The position numbers and the translations under genes were made by a program. A stretch of 63,975 nt of DNA, the filler included, from Asterionella formosa (Eukaryota), in assembly GCA_002256025.1 (NCBI GenBank). It is 24 parts of 24 records of this genome, joined end to end, with 100 filler letters (N's around TTAATTAATTAA, not from the genome) between each part and the next. Parts side by side here need not be neighbours in the genome. Positions count along the whole stretch, not along the records: positions 10,713 to 13,289 come from NKIB01015103.1; 23 more parts are not named here. One strand, given 5' to 3'. Below, piece by piece: positions 5,257 through 62,199 of this stretch. Under the pieces are notes generated by a model, which saw only the letters and a list, made by a program, of their open reading frames with translations, had not been told where the DNA came from and did no database searches. Position 1 is the first letter of the stretch. Every line of letters begins with the position of its first letter.

Positions 5257-5356
5257 NNNNNNNNNNNNNNNNNNNNNNNNNNNNNNNNNNNNNNNNNNNN
5301 TTAATTAATTAANNNNNNNNNNNNNNNNNNNNNNNNNNNNNNNNNNNNNNNNNNNN

Positions 5357-10612: not shown

Positions 10613-10713
10613 NNNNNNNNNNNNNNNNNNNNNNNNNNNNNNNNNNNNNNNNNNNNTTAATTAATTAANNNNNNNNNNNNNNNNNNNNNNNNNNNNNNNN
10701 NNNNNNNNNNNNC

Positions 10714-11147
10714 GATATCGGAACAGTCATTGAAGCTTTACTATTAAGTTTAGCCAGAGCCGGTCACAAGACAAAGTATGTCCGTTGCGATGACGCAGGC
10801 GAGAATACTAAACAATTGAGAAAGGTATGTGAAAATCGCGGTATAAAAATGGAATTTACTGCCCCGCACACTCCACAACACAATGGTGTAGTGGAACGCG
10901 GTTTTGTCATTGTGCAACAGAGGGCAATAGCAATGATGCTAAGTGCAAAACTAACAGATGAGTACCAAGGGCTATTATGGGCAGAGGCGGTACATACAGG
11001 TACATGTTTAACAAATAGTACAGTTAACTCAGTAACTAAAAGAAGTCCCGACGTCATGTTCTATGGCGAAATGAATCCAAGAAGGCCCTACAAGTTATAC
11101 AAGCAATTTGGGCGCGTAGGCTGGGTTACTGAAAGACACGGCATTAA
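10714..11147 (+). mobile_element. pol: Copia integrase core, interrupted at a TTAA
   Basis: YVRCDDAGEN...FTAPHTPQHNGVVERGF...LWAEAV is the rve-type D,D35E core; open from the contig start. Confidence 0.9.
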
Positions 11148-11763
11148 GGTTGCTGCATTTGAACCCCTAGCTCGAGGTAGGGTTTAAAAAAAAATATTCA
11201 GTCAGACTAATCAAACACATACTTTTCACATTCAAATTAAAAATGTATAACGCTCAACGGAGCTTACACCAATACACACCCTTTCCATATGCTTAAATAC
11301 AGTCTTCGGACAAAGTAGGGGTGTAGGTTCACTCTATATATCGTCAGTATATAGGATCTGGTCAGAAACTGCAGAAAGGAACTTCGGTTTTTTAACTAGG
11401 CTAAAAAGACTCGAAATTTCGGGGAAAATCTGTTTATTTGGCATAGTAAAAAAACCGAAGTTCCTTTCTGCAGTTTCTCGCCAGAAGTTATATACTGATG
11501 CTATTTGAAAGTTACCTATGTATCTAAATCGCCGTCAGACCCAGCCAACGTTTAGCTATCGTCGTCCAAAAACTCGACAAAATCGGCCTTTTCTACGGTC
11601 GCCAAAATATCGGAATCAGAATTATTAAGTGCCGAAATGTCATCATTGGAATGGCAGTCGTGTGCCGGAATTTTGAGTCCTAAAATCTCCTGTCCGAAAA
11701 AAATTCCATTGTGAGTACCCGCTTCCATATATATAATATGATTGGTCAGCATGAAGTACATTC
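11148..11763 (+). mobile_element. Kolobok-like element inserted at a TTAA in the integrase, itself interrupted by an LTR element
   Basis: TTAA|GGTTGCTGCATTTGAACCCCTAGCTCGAGGTAGGGTT; homologous to 8035..8338; internal inverted repeat of about 40 bp at about 11359..11399 and 11445..11484. Membership of the part beyond about 11510 is assumed. Confidence 0.6.
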
Positions 11764-11882
11764 TGTTAATATCTGCATATGATGCTCCATACATGAGTGC
11801 TAACAACGATGTACTTGGAACAGCAATAGAATAGTCATAATATTGTAGTTCACCTTTATTCACGATAAGGTTCCCCTCAACA
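11764..11882 (+). mobile_element. Short 5' LTR (119 bp) of a CoDi-like Copia element
   Basis: TGTTAA...TCAACA termini directly upstream of the gag leader; length almost identical to the independent 118-bp LTR at 23160..23277. Confidence 0.65.
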
Positions 11883-12029
11883 GAACTACAATATCTGTTC
11901 TTTCTCTCTTGTCCGCACCTGCGAAGTTGCGGCTCTTGTCGACAGTGCAAACCAGCACTGGTCTCAACAATCAACCGTCCAGCATCGCTTGCCCGTTCGC
12001 TGTCCCTGTCTCTCAGGCCTTCTTCCACC

Positions 12030-13289
12030 ATGACGACTCCAATCGTTTCCGCTGTTTTCCATTCCCTCATCCGCTCTTGACGCCAATCGAGGGCAAACCT
12101 ACAGCCTTCACTTTAACCCGCCTTCGCAAGGAACTCTTTGCCAACGCTTGCTCTGTCCACTGTACCAGTGGTGGTGATGCCAATGGTTTCCTTGGTATTG
12201 TCATGGCTGCTGCTCCTTATCTTTTACGTGCCGGTGAACCCTTTGTACCGCCCAAACATCCCGGCATCCAGCCGCCACACAGTGCTACTGCAACACAGTC
12301 CCAAATCACTGCTGCCAACCGTCTCTTTGACACCTCCCTTGACGCATTCCGCCGTTACTCCCAAATCCGTGAAATTCTCCGACAACAAATTCTAACAGCC
12401 ATTGACCCAACTTACTACAACGTTCTGGAAGATGATACATTTGGATATGCAGACATCACTGTTCTGACCTTGGTTGCTCACTTAGAATCTGCATATGCAA
12501 CATTGAGTGCGGATGATTTGGAACTCAATCGCATGCGCTTGGCCGATGCTTGGACACCAGTGGAACCTATTGAGCATTTATGGATCCACATCAAACATCT
12601 TCGTGCCATTGCCAATTCTGGTGGGGAACCTTTCTCGGACAGTACTGTCATGCGATTGACTCTTTCTGCTTTAGAACAGGCTGGTGTATATTCTCATAGC
12701 ATTCAAACTTGGCGTGATCGCGCTGAGCTGGACCGTACATGGGTTAATTTTTGCCCGCATTTCATGCATGCTGATAAGGAACGATTGTGCCTTGCCACCG
12801 CCACCACTGCCAGTTATCATGGTGCCCATGCTGCCATTCAAACCAGTGGCCCTCCCCCATTGCCAGCTATTGCTGCCACTGCTCGTGCTGTCCCTTCTGG
12901 ATACACTTACAACAATGTCCAATTAGGCTATTGTTGGACTCATGGTCTTACCAAAAACCCTGACCATACCAGTGCAACTTGCAATCATCCAGCTTCTGGC
13001 CATCAACTCAATGCCACCTTTGATCGACGTCTGGGTGGCAGCATCCGTCTTTTCAGTGATGGTCCCCGTAATACCCGGCCACCCCGTGTTTCACCGCCAC
13101 CTTCACCACTTGCTTGATGTGGAGGGGAGCAAGTTGCTGTCGATAATACTATTAAGACAAACTTATCTCCCATCACTTGTCCCTCCATCACACTCATTGC
13201 TGATTCTGGTAGTTCTGGCAATTATACAGCTGTTGATTTACCTATCATCAACAAATGACCTACCACCAACACTATCACCATTCAACTTC
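12030..13289 (+). mobile_element. gag-pol: CoDi-like Copia gag plus the start of protease, slightly decayed
   Basis: LTPIEGKP...ELFANACSV...GGDANGFLG and YCWTHG...HTSATC...GH...AT...R.GGS motifs; after TGA 13115..13117 the same frame reads LIADSGSSGNY (protease). The probable ATG at 12030 is one frameshift away from the main frame; a second stop lies at 13256. Confidence 0.8.
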
Positions 13290-13769
13290 NNNNNNNNNNN
13301 NNNNNNNNNNNNNNNNNNNNNNNNNNNNNNNNNTTAATTAATTAANNNNNNNNNNNNNNNNNNNNNNNNNNNNNNNNNNNNNNNNNNNNCGATGACTATG
13401 ATAATGGTTTATTCCTTGATAGTTTAGTAGATCATGATGCTGCTGCTATTAATGGTCCAATCATTCAGAACGGGGAAATAAACAACATTATAAACCCTAC
13501 CAACTTCCGATTTCGCGCACAAAGTATATCCGTTTCGTCCACTTCAGCATGAGAATCTCGCCAATCAACCCGTAAACAAACACATTCTACTTGTTCTCGT
13601 TGAAATTTTCAATTCTCACATGATAATACATCTACTATTTCGATTCAGCATAGAAGGAGATACGAAAATGTGCGTAACAGACTACTGTCCACATAGCTAT
13701 AGTCATAGAATGATTCTGATTAGGACGCATTTCATTTTCATGTCGCTTGCTCGTTTCTGCATTTGGCAT

Positions 13770-14185
13770 ACTGTACTTGAATTAACTATTGAACTTGTCC
13801 GCATCTTTGATACCATCAAGAGAGCGAAAGCAAGTGGCTCTTTTCACTGTTGTTTGCTCGTAGGAAGAATTTGATATCTGTATCGTCATTTGCTTGTTGG
13901 AATTGTCCGTTGCCTCAAACTTGCTTGGCGTGTGCGTGCACACACTGTCAACTTGTTTTCAATGGTATGTTGTTCTTGTATTCACTGTTGAACTTGTCCG
14001 TATCTTTGTTACCATCAATAGAGCGACAAGTGGGTCTCTTCATTGTTGTTTGCTCCTGGAAAAGTCGGTGTCGGTGTCCGTGTCCGTGTCATCCTCATCA
14101 ATAGAGAGACAAGTTCTTTCGTTGGAAAAATTGGTACAGTATCATCATTTGCTCGTTGGAACCACTGTCCGTTGCCTCAAACCTG
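13770..14185. repeat. Diverged tandem repeat of about 199 bp
   Basis: TTGAACTTGTCCG(C/T)ATCTTTG at 13789 and 13988; TGTCCGTTGCCTCAAAC recurs at about 13903 and 14166. Confidence 0.7.
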
Positions 14186-14219
14186 ATTAGCGTTTGAGTA
14201 CCGGTACCCGGTATGTGCA

Positions 14220-15593
14220 CTGTCATGAACATATGGTGTTCTATTTGTTTTGAGTTTTACGATTATACGATCCTAAAACTATGATGATTTACTGTCCCAC
14301 TGTAATTGCAACAGTCATGAACATATGGTGTTCTTTTGAATTTTAGTTTTATGATCATACGATCCTAAAACTATGATGATTTACTGTCCCACTATAATTG
14401 CAGCAGTCATGAACATGTGGTGTTCTTTTGGTTTTTAGTTTTATGATCATACAATCCTAAAACTATGATGATTTACTGTCCCACTGCAGTAGCAACAGTC
14501 CTGAACATATGGTGTTCTGTTGCTAGTTTACTACTCCGACTACCCCCAGTATATCAATTACCACCTGCTACTGGTACTCTGTATATATATATGATATATT
14601 GTTATTGTCATATGATGTACCAGTACACATAAAGAGCTCCCGACCAAAAAAGGGGCTTAATCAATTTGCTATCATAACCCTGGCGGCTATTTAACGGTCT
14701 AAATAATTAGTTTCAACGGACATAAAAAATATCGATGCAAACAAATTTCAGAAACAATTCCGGTACACGTAGTCGTGGAAAACAATGGACATATAGTGCA
14801 TTGAGTATTTTCGAATTATGTATATGCGAGTATGATCATCTCAACCATAATATCAGATGTTCCATATCGAGAGCGCCTTTGAATATAATAAATATATAAC
14901 ACTTAATATATATATATATTTACAAATTTTATTACTATATTCATGGCATATATATTTTTGAAATCGTTCTGTCATGTTAACAAACAATGCCTGCTGCTTC
15001 ATGAAAAGATACGTCGTAGTAAAGCACAGTAAAAGAAAAGAAAATTTTCGCAATACATAACGAAAAACATTGTGACTATGACACATTGCGCCTTCGAAGG
15101 ATGGAGAATGTTTAAGGTAATGAAGCCATCAATGTGGTAGCTACTTGGATGACAATCGTTGGGAGGCAGGACAACAACAAATTGTTAACTAAACGCAGCC
15201 ACATTTCCTTTTTTCTCAGTTGATTAAACAGCTCGTTTCGCTTGTTGGGGAGCGCACCAATGTAAAACAAAACAAAATTGCGTAAGTGCTCTTGTCGCTC
15301 GTTGGACCTATTCACTTCTGTTGGAACAAAGCTGACAAAACGTTTACCTTCTCTCAAAGTTAAGATGACAAAAATGTACCGGTAAGTTTATTCAACAACA
15401 TTGGATACCCGAAACTTACTTATTCAAGAATTTGGCTTACTGACAAGTTACTATTACAGACTTATGCATCAGTTGCATTGATTTGTGGTAAGTGAAGCAA
15501 GAGGATACGATGGAATTGCGTGTCGTTGTTTCAATGTAACATGACTGCTAGCTAACAAATCATTCCTTCTCATTGTTTCTGTAACTGCATAGG
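14220..15593 (+). repeat. Dispersed repeat (non-autonomous element body) beginning with a minisatellite of about 90 bp
   Basis: Colinear with about 19640..21001; the unit ATCCTAAAACTATGATGATTTACTGTCCCACT...AACAGTC.TGAACATATGGTGTTC is repeated. Confidence 0.9.
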
Positions 15594-16064
15594 TTGCTGC
15601 AATGTAAATTGAATCCTTGACTCAAATGAAAGAACTCTGCAATACAGTTGAATGGTGAGTGTGTTCTTGTTGTGTACCTAAATGCTAGTATGGCTTGTCA
15701 GCTCACGCATTGTTGTTGACAACAGGCAGGGACAATGAGGTCCGGAATGAACTGTGTGTTGCTTTCTGCTGTTGCTAGTTCTATCATATACATTACTGAC
15801 ACACTGTTGTTATGAAAATCTCTGCAGGTCAATGAAGAAGTCATTTCAAGTACAAGAAGGAAATCAGTGTGTGAGGATGCATTCATGTTGCAACTTCGTA
15901 GAATGATGCCTGTTCAAGAGTGAATAATTTTCCCCTTCTGAATGAATGGCTTCTCCTTGTCTTGNNNNNNNNNNNNNNNNNNNNNNNNNNNNNNNNNNNN
16001 NNNNNNNNTTAATTAATTAANNNNNNNNNNNNNNNNNNNNNNNNNNNNNNNNNNNNNNNNNNNN

Positions 16065-18637: not shown

Positions 18638-18739
18638 NNNNNNNNNNNNNNNNNNNNNNNNNNNNNNNNNNNNNNNNNNNNTTAATTAATTAANNNNNNN
18701 NNNNNNNNNNNNNNNNNNNNNNNNNNNNNNNNNNNNNTT

Positions 18740-18958
18740 GCAGGTCATTATTGGAACCCTTCGAACTACGGTACTGTTGATCCTTGGACTGTTGTCAATG
18801 GGTCTTACTACAATTCGGATGCCATTGGACATGCTGATAGGTACTTTCATTTAGATGATGGCTATGGCATTGACCTCAATTATAGACATGCAGTGGTCTT
18901 CCATGATGGAACTGGTACACGTATTGCATGTGGTGTATTGTCCATTATGGAACTTTAG
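18740..18958 (+). CDS. C-terminal part of a Cu/Zn-superoxide-dismutase-fold protein (Cu-only SOD-like)
   Basis: Manual translation AGHYWNPSNYGTVDPW...YRHAVVFHDGTGTRIACGVLSIMEL*; GHxxNP, AVVFH and RIACG are Sod_Cu motifs. Missed by the ORF track. Confidence 0.75.
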   Translation, partial: AGHYWNPSNYGTVDPWTVVNGSYYNSDAIGHADRYFHLDDGYGIDLNYRHAVVFHDGTGTRIACGVLSIMEL

Positions 18959-19088
18959 ATACAATACATGAGCAACTGTTCCAATTGTGTCATGCTTGAT
19001 TATATTTTGTAAAAGTCCTTTGATTGCTCTATATCATGTGCGTACCAGTTTTTCAATGGTTCTACCATCTACTTCTGTGTCCTGATAA

Positions 19089-21001
19089 CTCTTCCCAGTT
19101 TTCATGTAATGTAGGTTACTACCGGTACTAGGTAATTGTACTTCTACTAGTAGTAAGCAACCCAATATTTCTATGTGATTATTATTACTCAAAATCAACA
19201 CTGGTGGAGTTATGTTTGCTGACGAGGATGGTAGTATTGTTTGTCAAATATGTGCCGAACAAGGTCCATTCAAGTTACCAATTCAGAAGCCTAAAGCACA
19301 TTAGAGACTGATGCTGATACTTGCTTGTTCAGCAAACTTTAGCTACCGGTTATTCTTATTTTTCTCTCGCCAGCACAGCACTGCAACGACAGCAAATATC
19401 ATGGATCTGTGTGACAATAACAATAAGGACAAATGTCAATTCTGTGGTAAAGGTCCTTTTAAATCAATTCGTGCTCATCACAGACACAGCCCCTTGTGTG
19501 GGCAACAGTTTATGATTCAATCTCAGATTCAAGCATTGCAGACATCATCATTGGTAGCGACTTCGCCAAGAGATGGACGACACCACTCTCATACAATCCT
19601 AAAACTATGATGATTTACTATCCCACTGCAGTAGCAACAGTCCTGATTATTTGGTGTTCTATTGGTTTTTAGTTTTACAATTATACGATCCTAAAACTAT
19701 GATGATTTACTGTCCCACTGCAGTAGCAACAGTCCTGAACATATGATGTTCTATTGGTTTTTAGTTTTACGATCATACGATCCTAAAATTATGATCATTT
19801 ACTGTTCGAATGCAGTAGCAACAGTCCTGAACATATGATGTTCTATTGGTTTTTAGTTTTACAATCATACGATCCTCAAACTATGATGATTTACTGTCTC
19901 ACTGCAGTAGCAACAGTCCTGAACATATGGTGTTCTGTTGCTAGTTTACTACTCCGACTATCCCCAGTATATCACTTACTACCTGCTACTGGTACTCTGT
20001 ATATATATATGATATATTGTTATTGTCATATGATGTACCGGTACACATGAAGAGCTTCCAACCAAAAAAGGGGCTTAAACAATTTGCTACCAAAACCCTT
20101 GCGGCAATTGAACGGTCTAAATAATTAGTTTCAACGGACTTAAAAAATATCGATGCAAACAAATTTCAGAAACAATACCGGTACATGTAGTCGTGGAAAA
20201 CAATGGACATATAGTGCATTGAGTATTTTCGAATTATGTATATGCAAGTATGATCATCCCAACCATATCAGATGTTCCATATCGAGAGCGCCTTTGAATT
20301 TTATAAATGTATAACACTTAATATATATATATTTACAAATTTTATTACTATATCCATGGCATATATATTTTTGAAATCGTTCTGTCATGTTAACAAACAA
20401 TGCCTGCTGCTTCATGAAAAGATACGTCGTAGTTAAGCACATGACAAGCAAAGAAAGTTTATGCAATACTTAACGAGAAACATTGTGGCTTCGACAAATT
20501 GCGCCTTCGAAGGATGGAGAATGTTTAAGGTAATGAAGCCATCAATGTGGTACTTGGATGACAATTGTTGGGAGGCAGGCAGGCAGCACAACAACAAATT
20601 GTTAACTAAACCCAGCCACATTTCCTTTTTTCTCAGTTGATTCAACAGCTCGTTTCGCTTGTTGGGGAGCACCAATGTAAAACAAAACCAAATTGCGTAA
20701 GTGCTCTTGTCGCTCGTTGGACCTATTCACTTCTGTTGGAACAAAACTGACAAAACGTTTACCTTCTCTCAAAGTTAAGCTGACAAAAATGAACCGGTAA
20801 GTTTTATTCGACAACATTGGATACCCGAAACTTACTTATTCAAGAATTTACTGACAGGTTACTATTACAGACTTATGCATCAGTTGCATTGATTTGTGGT
20901 AAGTGAAACAAGAGGATACGGTGGAATTGTGTGTCGTTGCGTCAATGTAACATGACTAGCTAACAAATCATTCCTTCTCATTGTTACTGTTTCTGCATAG
21001 G
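19089..21001 (+). mobile_element. Non-autonomous element with zinc-finger remnants and a minisatellite of about 90 bp (4 copies, about 19590..19940)
   Basis: The start matches 47961..47994 (30/34 nt); CQFCGKGPFKSIRAHHRHSPLC zinc finger; the body is shared with 14220..15593. Confidence 0.65.
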
Positions 21002-21410
21002 ACAATAAAACCAATGAAACAACGGAATAGTCGGTGAGTTCAGAGTGTCACTAATTGCAGGGAGAAATGCGAGTCATTAAGCACTGCATGGCGCAAGATT
21101 CAGAATAGAGGAAGGAAAGGGCAAGACAGGAACAATATACATTGAGCCGAGTAGAGAGAGAAACATTGGGTCACTGGCATGTAGTAGATCATTAATAGAT
21201 AGCATTGCTAAATTTGATAGTTAAATTACGATCCATTTCAATCTATTTTGAACAATGCTTGTGATTAGAATTATGATCATGTTTACGATAGATTTACGAT
21301 GAAACAATTCNNNNNNNNNNNNNNNNNNNNNNNNNNNNNNNNNNNNNNNNNNNNTTAATTAATTAANNNNNNNNNNNNNNNNNNNNNNNNNNNNNNNNNN
21401 NNNNNNNNNN

Positions 21411-31429: not shown

Positions 31430-32142
31430 TAAATAAAACAATGGCATCAAAAAATCATACTGGAAGGGTGGGTCCTACATTCCGGTACCAGGCACCTGGT
31501 ACCACTTCTTGACATTCAAAGTACCAGGTACCAGGTTACCTGGTTACCATCATACCTGGTACCTGGTACCGGTATGTCGGATAGAATGACTGGCGTCACG
31601 ACGAAGCAAGCAAAATATCGGATAGCTAAGCAAAAAGGCCAGCAATGACGAACAGACTTGGTAATTAGCATTCATGACGGTGTGCTCTTTGCAGACCCGT
31701 AATAATCCCTGCTTTATGTGCTGATGGTTCATTCTTCCCTCTTGATTGCATTGTCAATTAAGTCTTGCTCGAAATTCTTTCGTTGCCTTCCTTGATGAGC
31801 AATTGGATGAAGAAGAAGTCGTCATTTATTGAACAACTCACTGTGAGCAACAACGACAGCAGCCGCAACAACAACAACAACTTCTACTAAAACTACAAGC
31901 TTCCTTCACAATCCATAGCAAGGCAGACCAGCATGTCGCTCGACTGGTTTCATCACTCGCAACTTCCAGTACCCCTTGATCGCTACATATCCNNNNNNNN
32001 NNNNNNNNNNNNNNNNNNNNNNNNNNNNNNNNNNNNTTAATTAATTAANNNNNNNNNNNNNNNNNNNNNNNNNNNNNNNNNNNNNNNNNNNNTAACTCAC
32101 GCTCTTGTTTTGCCATCCAAATCAAATTCTCAAATCACAATC

Positions 32143-48525: not shown

Positions 48526-50209
48526 GGGCAAATACAAAAGTCGAAATGAATTGTGTCCACGAAAACCGTGATTTAGCCCAAGACTACCCGAGCAAGGTAT
48601 AGACGTCACTCCATTGGCAAACGATTGCTTCCAAGAGACATTTACTTCGTGTGAATGCCACACGTCTACCAGTACCAGTACTTTTATCACAGGGGTTAGG
48701 GATCAAGGCTATATCAACAATACTCCACACATCAGGGTGGACTATCACATATAAATCTAATTAGATAACAAAGTAGGAGTACATTTTAGTCCCTGGTCCC
48801 GGGTAGCAGAGGGACCTGCTTAAAAGTGAATTGCTGCATTTTATCCATGTACGGCAAGAGCTTAAAGGATCACTCCTTTCCCAGCACGGTGGAATCATCT
48901 GCAAAAGTGATCATATCAGGTATCTGGTACCACCTGATGATGTCACTCACTGCATCTTTCCATTGAACATAAGGCAAAGAAGCATTGCTCTTGGAGTACC
49001 AGAGTACCTGGAGACCAGGTAATACCAGCTGCACGGGCAACAGAGAGCGTACAAGAAGGTAGGAAGACCTGGTACACGGTACTCCCACACATGTAGTACC
49101 TGGTACCGGGATACCACATTCGCTCAGTATCCACATATTTATTTATACCAGTACACGGTATACCCTACATATTCAAAACGAGGAACGAATGCCATCATGG
49201 TAAAAATGGCTTTATCATAGCTATCCTACTACATGTGTGTTTCAGGAATGGTGAAGGAAGAAATGAAACTGGCATGCACGCCTCAGCCAAGCAGCAAGTT
49301 TAAAAAAAGTATGAGCGGCAAGCAAGTTGCTAGGTTGAATTTCACAAAGCAAATATTATTTAGGCATGTCCTTCTGATACATAGTGCGGAGACTTATTTT
49401 CTTACATATGATCATACAGAATTATTCCTAAAATTCTAATACTACCAAATTTTATTTAGGCATGTCCTTCTGATACGACGGGGATTTATTTTCTTGTTAT
49501 GTAGGATCATACAGAATTATTCCTAAAATTCGAATACAAGGTAATATGTAAATTGCAAGGTCACATTCAATTTATCATAGCCATATACCGTTACTTGAAA
49601 GTATCATCTCCTTCAACCGACCGCTTTTAGTGTTCTCAATTACCGCGTCAACAACAGTTTGTGTTCGCTACTATGTATTGTGTACATAACCGCCAATGTT
49701 CTGATTTCTATGTAAATAATAGGGTAAGTCGTGTAGATGATGATTGACTGCATCATCACAAGCAAGGGAACATCGCTCAGCTTATATCGAAACTACCAGT
49801 ACTTCAAACAACTTTAAACATGACTACCGGTACCTGGTACCTGGTAAACGATAGTATGGCCATTGTCTGTTCGTTCTGGTACCTGGTACCAGGTACCAGT
49901 ATCTGGTAGGACCAGGTGGCAATTGACATCATGAATGAATATGAGTTGTCAAATGCGATGTTTGAAGTATATCGTACGTACAGAATACTTCGTAGCCATC
50001 TTATTTTAAATATACATGCACAAGTTACCTGTAGAATGCTCTTCACAAAGAACCAGGGTCAAGGACGTCAACATATAGCCAAATCATGTTGACGCCACGA
50101 AGCAATGGCTGGCTTTTCTTCAACAGATATATTCGCCGTTCTCATAATTTAAAGCACGTTGTAGTAATTCATAGACTTGCACAAAAATCTTTTCATCAAC
50201 GAACAGAAA

Positions 50210-56104: not shown

Positions 56105-56335
56105 CTCATATACCGGTATGCCAACTACCGGTAAACATGCAGGCTGGCTGGTGGTTAAGACTACCGGTATCAGTACTGTCACCTGGTACCAGGTGGAGTA
56201 CCGGGTACCAGGTACCAGATACTGCCTCTACCTGGTATGGTACCTGGTACCAGGCACCTGGTACCCTACCAGTCCGGTACCTGGTACCGGTGTCTGGTTG
56301 CGTCTGATCGGTACCAGGTAGCTGGTACCGGCACT
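56105..56335. repeat. Dense TA-punctuated CCGG/CCAGG/CCTGG array; similar arrays at 700..786, 17220..17272, 24183..24220, 31483..31575, 48925..49110, 49824..49918 and 56811..56856
   Basis: Directly visible, e.g. TACCTGGTATGGTACCTGGTACCAGG. Confidence 0.9.
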
Positions 56336-61313: not shown

Positions 61314-62199
61314 NNNNNNNNNNNNNNNNNNNNNNNNNNNNNNNNNNNNNNNNNNNNTTAATTAATTAANNNNNNNNNNNNNNNNNNNNNNNNNNNNNNN
61401 NNNNNNNNNNNNNTCATCAACAACACCGTTTATCATGTGATCAATATGTTATGATCAAAGGTATAGGATAAACGAATCAAAATTTATGGATTAAAGATCA
61501 TAGTTTTTACCGGGGTAGTTGCTCATGCAGCATGCAACCCCTTCCCCCCCTGTACACAGTACAGAAGTGATAACCCCCAAGCTACCAAATTTTTATGTCT
61601 TGTAAGAATTATCGCAGCATGCATGCATATTACATGACTCCTACTGGTATATACAATGCAGAAATGATGACCACCAGACTACCAATCCTATAGGTCCTGT
61701 AGAATTATCGCAACATCATGGCTGGCTGCATATCTAATGAAAGGGCGGGAGGAGTCATACATGCTGCACCTGTATAGTATGAAATAGTATGGAAATGATC
61801 AAATATAGCTAGTCTACACAAGGAGCAGTGCATCATATATGCCTGCTGTTGTTATTTTAATTCCAATGAAATCTCTTGATCTGTTCTGCGCTTTTTCGCC
61901 ACAATCGTTTTCATTGGCTGTTTCACTGGACAGCATTCGAATTGATTGTGCTTTGAACGAAGCAATGATCAAAGTCCACCCCATTGGAGAATGGTGAGTC
62001 TCACAACTAAGTATCAGCCAGTCGATTAAAATTGGACTGTCTTTTGCGCACCCTTGTTGTGTTTGTACATTGACTTCTTGGCAACTGTCAGCCAAGAGCA
62101 GTAATGGTATGCCACCATTTATTGCCTATACACATTTTCGAATGCGTTCAGCTATGATAACTTTTGCTCCTAGACGCTATCTCACCACCACCCTTGCCA

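Follow-up and report, generated by a model that had tools for sequence, protein, structure and literature searches.

Nearly all LTR retroelements start reverse transcription from a tRNA borrowed from their host. To our knowledge, experimental proof of self-priming, in which the RNA of the element itself takes over this role, is confined to Tf1 and its kin, the mechanism having otherwise been predicted for a few other groups. Tf1 and Tf2 of S. pombe, Tj1, and the sushi and Tcn1 groups are the self-priming elements of the Ty3/Gypsy type. According to PMC7175516, the opening 11 bases of Tf1's RNA pair with its primer-binding site (PBS), cleavage by RNase H falling between bases 11 and 12, and a self-priming mechanism is described for Tj1 of S. 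japonicus in PMC4600332. The preliminary description of the locus reported here had taken this mechanism for a trait of the Ty3/Gypsy group, a view that proves too narrow, since PMC6317226 states that in plants the TAR lineage of Ty1/copia, to which Houba and Osr-1 belong, is predicted to self-prime (its source for these two, reference 62, is listed there as a nomenclature paper). The element considered here is consequently not the first self-priming case in Copia: the TAR prediction is earlier, and the novelty is smaller than first stated. Two further groups are of interest. Fungal GalEa elements have no tRNA-type PBS and carry a Conserved Hairpin Site at the PBS position, both arms of the hairpin lying downstream of the LTR and the first being palindromic with the last A of the LTR; no complement in U5 or R was found, as far as the excerpted text of PMC5445492 goes. 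According to PMC2806351, the CoDi elements (Copia of diatoms) have LTRs from 153 nt with TG/CA ends, measure some 5.2 kb or more and show at most one stop codon or frameshift at the passage from gag to pol; PBS, tRNA and priming are unmentioned in the main text of that paper, to the extent of its excerpts. A full-text literature search for self-priming LTR retrotransposons in diatoms brought up no description of such an element in the parts of the texts that it returned.

The locus analysed below belongs to a family that shares with Tf1-type elements a putative PBS placed directly behind the 5' LTR and complementary to the LTR and 5' RNA of the element itself (about 11 nt), together with a structured loop. 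Unlike the Tf1/sushi clade, it has the Copia order of domains, a loop of only ~31 nt and LTRs of 116-325 nt. With the TAR lineage it has in common a Copia-type pol and a PBS that is predicted to be complementary to the element rather than to a tRNA (as TAR is portrayed in PMC6317226); this likeness is one of description only, and the loci of our family come from aquatic metagenomes, not from land plants. GalEa, which has no tRNA-type PBS, resembles it in being Copia and in bearing a hairpin at the PBS position, judging from the excerpted account in PMC5445492; a tRNA-type PBS is apparently missing from our family as well. An assignment to the GalEa Conserved Hairpin Site, as that account defines it, was nevertheless rejected: here the left arm belongs to the LTR interior, 31 nt short of the LTR end, in keeping with the requirement of the Tf1 model and unlike the arrangement in GalEa. 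Finally, the family is like CoDi in Copia order, short LTRs, TG/CA ends, length and the stop between gag and pol, a comparison that again is by description only and follows the excerpts of PMC2806351.

The window, by which we mean the whole stretch of 63,975 bases that was analysed, consists of 24 unplaced contigs of 2,562-2,578 nt set end to end, longest first. Between them stand spacers of 100 nt (N runs around TTAATTAATTAA, with stops in six frames; 2579-2678, 5257-5356 and so on to 61314-61413), and any feature spanning one of them is an artefact. Pfam matches of other ORFs in the window show a eukaryotic host and nothing narrower, and the taxa of the ESM Atlas clusters are uninformative in this respect. 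The element sits on the 2.6-kb contig 10713-13289, of which it occupies the right-hand part. A divergent LTR retrotransposon of the Ty1/Copia type is represented here by the 5' end of one defective copy (Table 1). This copy is cut by the contig end, where the N/stop linker begins, so that the 3' LTR of the window copy lies outside the view.

Table 1. Parts of the defective element, in positions along the window.
Feature	Position	Strand	Basis
5' LTR (TGTT...AACA), 119 nt, deletion variant	11764..11882	+	start: flanks of relatives; end: inferred from TG..CA termini and junctions of three relatives
CATAA motif bordering the left arm on its outer side; putative initiator or transcription start	11836..11840	+	conservation in 42 rows
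Left arm, putative self-primer (5' end of R)	11840..11851	+	complementarity, covariation
Loop of 31 nt, remaining R/U5 to LTR end	11852..11882	+	layout, fold
Right arm, putative primer-binding site (PBS), exact complement of 11840-11851	11883..11894	+	complementarity, covariation, junctions of relatives
5' leader, from PBS to gag ATG	11895..12030	+	placement of gag start, relatives
gag, YCWTHG type, no Pfam family; frameshifted; TGA stop 13115-13117	12031..13117	+	homologues
Start of pol, in frame with gag behind a single TGA; truncated by the contig end	13118..13289	+	reading frame, protease D-S-G

The protein collection holds 28 homologues of gag, of ~360 aa, all of which begin M..(P)FPHP.LTPI.GKPT and carry YCWTHGL near the C-terminus; no Pfam family is matched by gag. 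The frameshift of the window gag is due to one missing nucleotide (C) behind 12058, which is present in other copies, as judged from the homologues and from the contigs of RNA runs (the runs X1, X15, X16 and X20 were compared as assembled contigs, which are devoid of strand, start and poly(A) information). The pol begins with the protease motif I-A-D-S-G-S (D-S-G at 13202-13210) and has a premature stop at 13256-13258, most other copies among the RNA-run contigs reading C at 13256 (T>C). In the intact relative L003, the 1,356 codons of pol encode an integrase SH3-like domain (residues 441-497) followed by RVT_2 (914-1030), and four further pols match RVT_2 at residues 809-1124; the RVT_2 scores run from 20.5 to 36.9 bits against a Pfam cut-off of 31.6, which only L025 passes (36.9). 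The nearest ESM Atlas clusters are RVT_2/Ty1-Copia. An RVT_2 downstream of the integrase and a protease DSG at the start of pol place the element in Ty1/Copia, and the same order, with the integrase SH3-like domain preceding RVT_2, rules out the Tf1/sushi clade of Ty3/Gypsy. The element unit measures ~5.4 kb plus an LTR. Taken with a gag that falls in no Pfam family, the weak RVT_2 match suggests a distant lineage. As regards the border of gag and pol, gag ends in a single stop with pol in the same frame at 19 of 20 distinct gag ends (TGA 16, TAG 3), the loci of such stops being 1522-1533 in L003, 13115-13126 in the window and 18 further ones; 5-9 nt past the stop comes a G-rich motif that is conserved, in most cases as GAGGG, and the combination has the look of stop-codon readthrough, with a signal placed downstream. 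On the same contig, part of an integrase core (rve_3, E = 5e-4; ...HTPQHNGVVER...) is encoded at 10714-11184 and ends in a stop at 11185-11187. Its inclusion in our element was rejected, BLASTP against the pol of this family giving E = 0.46 and so no detectable relationship, and it is a piece of a different element.

At the 5' end of the element, the 12-nt match from which this work started is exact: ATATTGTAGTTC, in the left arm, is followed after 31 nt by its reverse complement GAACTACAATAT in the right arm. The latter begins at the first base past the LTR end ...CCTCAACA (11882), and there is indeed no TGG behind the LTR of the window. RNA of 11834-11900 folds into the arm helix with -15.2 kcal/mol (z = -4.24 against 200 shuffles). 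The statement that a chance match is unlikely stands by virtue of position and conservation; it fails in so far as it leans on a single 12-mer, which is weak alone in a window rich in such repeats. Indeed, the window holds 18 perfect inverted repeats of at least 12 nt (loop 10-120 nt), many of them in GGTACC-rich repeats, while 20 shuffles gave 0-3 twelve-mer matches, and a lone 12-mer is therefore unremarkable, so that position and conservation have to decide. The AATAGA proposed as a poly(A)-like signal is present at 11825-11830, yet the stretch is unconserved in the relatives (alignment columns 1-22), and we have dropped this part of the preliminary description. Within the loop, 11852-11856 pairs with 11867-11871 (ACCTT/AAGGT) to form a small inner hairpin; it was rejected as a feature of the family, with 60.5% of cells paired and conservation in only part of the family. 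A search of 11650-12100 against Rfam, with E up to 10, gave no tRNA-like match, its sole match, to a lncRNA, being meaningless, and tRNA scans found no tRNA gene in the window and in 34 relative loci.

A metagenome scan with the gag alignment yielded 76 related loci, whose gag identity ranges from 95% down to 33%. Adding the contig of the window gives 77 sources, 54 of which have at least 200 nt upstream of gag and provide 58 distinct regions; in each of these, up to 400 nt upstream of the estimated gag start was searched for the longest perfect inverted repeat with a loop of 10-120 nt. Of the 58 regions, 51 contain such a repeat of 10 nt or longer; with the limit raised to 11 nt there are 47, and with 12 nt there are 38. 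Mononucleotide shuffles, five per region, reached 10 nt in 3 of 290 cases and 11 nt or more in none of the 290. Seven regions miss 10 nt, namely L014, L072, L022, L040, L068, L034 and L033. Two of them (L014 and L072) stem from spurious second start estimates inside gag; L022 and L040, as well as L021, have one mismatch each in the helix; the inverted repeat of L068 is 9 nt long; in L034 the hairpin lies further upstream, across the contig wrap; and L033 has unrelated repeats upstream and no LTR there. The 23 remaining sources fall outside the count of 58 regions. Ten of these have 65-197 nt upstream of gag and no hairpin within it, mostly because the contig starts too late (that of L013 begins right at the typical right arm). 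One clear exception has to be mentioned: at positions 1-60 of L018 the LTR-start motif TGTTGA is joined nearly directly to the loop, and this sequence aligns to the hairpin region of L017 with the arms unpaired, although its gag seems intact over the matched part. L018 is probably a decayed or rearranged copy.

Across the 43 rows compared for layout, one of which is false, the order of the parts is constant: (CT)CATAA, a left arm ending in AG(C/T)TC, a loop that runs to the end of the LTR, and the right arm. The arms are 9-15 nt long (12 nt in 23 of 43 rows) and the loop 26-35 nt in 38 of 43 rows, with exactly 31 nt in 18. The loop closes with the 4 nt AATA in 24 and AACA in 12 rows. There are about 30 distinct arm sequences; the right arm starts with GAG in 19, GAA in 14 and GAT in 4 of the 43 rows, and with TGG in none of them. 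At the outer edge of the left arm stands CATAA, mostly as CTCATAA; its C, its first A, its T and its final A do not vary across 42 rows (columns 25-29), and in none of the 43 rows does the helix extend upstream of the A in C/ATAA. CATAA may be an initiator or a poly(A) signal.

The preliminary description had proposed that relatives with a gag of the YCWTHG type be collected and the bases behind the LTR compared with the LTR interior for covariation, and the outcome is clearly positive. In a MAFFT alignment of 42 distinct regions, 93.0% of the cells of a 12-pair helix are paired and nine of the 12 pairs have changed on both sides, while slid controls leave 26-38% of cells paired. The covariation score of the whole structure is 0.438 against 0.134 ± 0.013 in shuffles, none of 500 reaching 0.438. 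These figures include the misaligned L064 and L076, which weigh against the helix. Possession of an inverted repeat of 9 nt or longer served to select the rows, so that inner pairing is partly given by construction, whereas the diversity of the pairs is not. RNAalifold, unaided, predicts the arm helix with 10 pairs, eight of them compensatory. On a FastTree gag tree of 39 rows, from which L001, L052 and L054 (gag too short) and L040 (the false row) were left out, no fewer than 49 switches from one Watson-Crick pair type to another are required to account for the ten inner pairs. Thus the family has two of the traits of Tf1-type elements, a sequence behind the LTR complementary to its own LTR and a complementarity kept by compensatory change.

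The exact position of the arms relative to the LTR boundaries is of prime importance here. The LTR start that had been placed at 11764 holds: it is at TGTTAATATC, preceded by differing flanks, that homology to L003, L052 and L021 sets in. Close relatives align from exactly this position, L001, L002, L003 and L052 with ~97% identity and L021 with 82%, and the DNA upstream of it differs among the window, L003 (5' side), L052 and L021. Furthermore, the TGTT start follows the internal end ...GGTGAGGGTG in L001, in L002 and at the 3' LTR of L003, and loose ends at 11764 in the RNA runs X1 (22 contigs) and X16 agree with it. The LTR of the window lacks 48 nt behind 11795, the LTR of its close relatives being 167 nt long according to the relatives and the RNA-run contigs. 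Of 42 distinct rows, 23 show the junction GAGGGTG/TGTT upstream of the hairpin, from which the LTR lengths of 116-325 nt follow. In addition, some contigs of RNA runs (two of X15, one of X16) pass from 11763 into other sequence (CTCTGTTTGATT...) in place of the LTR; they resemble the flanking repeat in a state free of the insertion and might reveal the empty site and the target-site duplication.

The LTR end at 11882 is more delicate. The right arm stands directly behind the LTR at the junctions of relatives; in the window copy, whose contig stops at 13289, the end itself is inferred. Junctions between a 3' LTR and flanking DNA were found in L025, L058 and L062 (the same as L063), and none of them comes from the window's own family. 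The LTR of L025 ends ...ATCAACA, with flank behind the 3' copy and GAGCTACCTAA behind the 5' copy; that of L058 ends ...TCAATA and is followed either by flank or by GAACTGACTAA; L062 has the same pattern, with an ambiguity of at most 3 nt at its junction. In all three, LTR+1 is the place where the right arm begins, and the comparison with 3' LTR boundaries, carried out on these relatives, revealed no differing boundary. Among the loose ends listed for the RNA-run contigs there is none at 11882/11883. Several other contigs (L001, L002, L006, L009, L015, L045, L047, L050 and L054) repeat their start at their end over 91-739 nt, with a unit of ~5.3-5.6 kb, and L025 has an end repeat as in circular contigs that goes 14 nt further into the flank. 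Such repetition may stem from cycles of the assembly through collapsed LTRs, from tandem arrays or from circles with one LTR. Being circular assembly paths, many of the relatives' contigs are therefore unusable for fixing the LTR end.

In the light of these observations, we consider that the element most likely primes its minus-strand DNA with its own RNA, by a Tf1-like self-priming; for this reading, put forward when the locus was first described, the covariation among relatives and the LTR boundaries provide support at the level of sequence. Transcription would start within the LTR, at CATAA or just behind it, and the RNA's initial 10-15 nt (the left arm) would fold over the ~31-nt loop and pair with the PBS from LTR+1. 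The RNase H of the element would then cleave at the junction of left arm and loop, after which the freed 3' OH would be extended across the loop to give a strong-stop DNA of ~31 nt that jumps to the 3' R. Plus-strand synthesis would re-copy the primer into the PBS in each cycle, and as a result the arms would stay matched while their sequence drifts. The end of U5 is defined by the 3' end of the primer, so that whatever primes must pair from LTR+1. It is precisely the 3' end of the left arm that pairs with LTR+1, which is the geometry required of a primer, and the left arm, located on the same RNA, is the only conserved partner. That the helix stops at the A of C/ATAA would be an indirect hint to the start site. 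The self-priming model would also entail an R/U5 of only ~43 nt, which would be unusually short.

Since covariation proves the helix and not its role, one may object that the helix is a structural element of the 5' leader, such as a U5-leader stem acting in packaging, dimerisation or the control of translation or polyadenylation, and that another primer is used. The hairpin that fungal GalEa Copia elements conserve at the PBS position, with a role given as unknown in the excerpted text of PMC5445492, speaks in the same direction. We regard this alternative as rather unlikely, because at all three junctions the right arm occupies the very place where a primer must pair and has an exact complement in cis, the left arm, because the alignment contains no other conserved candidate PBS past the right arm, and because the right arm never starts with TGG.

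A host RNA, for example a tRNA half or a small RNA ending in ...AG(C/U)UC, could also prime at the right arm, the copy in the LTR being incidental or a mimic. Over its inner 6 nt the right arm shows fair conservation, as the prevalence of GAG and GAA starts illustrates, and the 7-mer CTCATAA before the arm resembles what we take to be the anticodon loop of tRNA-Met; moreover, several Copia lineages use half-tRNA primers, as PMC6317226 has it. This explanation nevertheless appears very improbable. A fixed RNA cannot yield some 30 arm sequences that change together on both sides, with the number of switches counted on the gag tree, and it leaves the match of the outer arm positions to the LTR unexplained; the CATAA motif itself is unpaired with the PBS, and Rfam contains no tRNA-like match for the region. 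Lastly, chance is excluded and an assembly artefact in a repeat-rich, unplaced 2.6-kb contig hardly conceivable, despite the abundance of perfect inverted repeats in the window and the circular assembly of many relatives, given that the layout recurs in most regions, from independent assemblies with differing sequences, at lengths that shuffles never attain.

Returning to self-priming, dozens of independent compensatory changes support the pairing, and a large and old self-priming family of Copia type would hence widen the exception to tRNA priming. With ~55 nt, it would offer a compact natural system for the study of how reverse transcriptase and RNase H recognise and cut their own RNA, and it would have a bearing on the proposal that hairpin priming preceded tRNA priming. 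From a practical point of view, annotation tools that seek a tRNA-type PBS will miss or mis-score such elements in algal genomes. One could go as far as to speculate, and we find it rather doubtful, that self-priming is ancestral and obligate in a deep-branching Copia clade of aquatic microalgae, relying on a minimal module (CATAA start, ~12-nt primer, ~31-nt strong-stop) that either arose independently of Tf1/sushi and TAR or survives from the hairpin-primed ancestor proposed for LTR elements in PMC3601003.

Other repeats of the window deserve a brief mention. Between the integrase fragment and the LTR lies a high-copy repeat (11143-11700) with inverted arms of 73 nt (11338-11410/11432-11504) that are 84% complementary; an 84%-identical copy is found at the edge of another contig (8035-8343, reverse). 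In run X1 the contig depth over this repeat is ~3-fold up, and many loose ends fall at 11143-11149, 11432 and 11490. It may be a MITE-like element. The contigs 13390-15964 and 18738-21310 are 94-98% alike over much of their length and each contain three tandem 92-nt units (14127-14610 and 19545-20028), which probably makes the two contigs alleles or duplicates. Palindromic repeats based on GGTACC (GGTACCTGGTACC and similar) form clusters in several contigs, at 31521-31569, 49829-49899 and 56182-56320.
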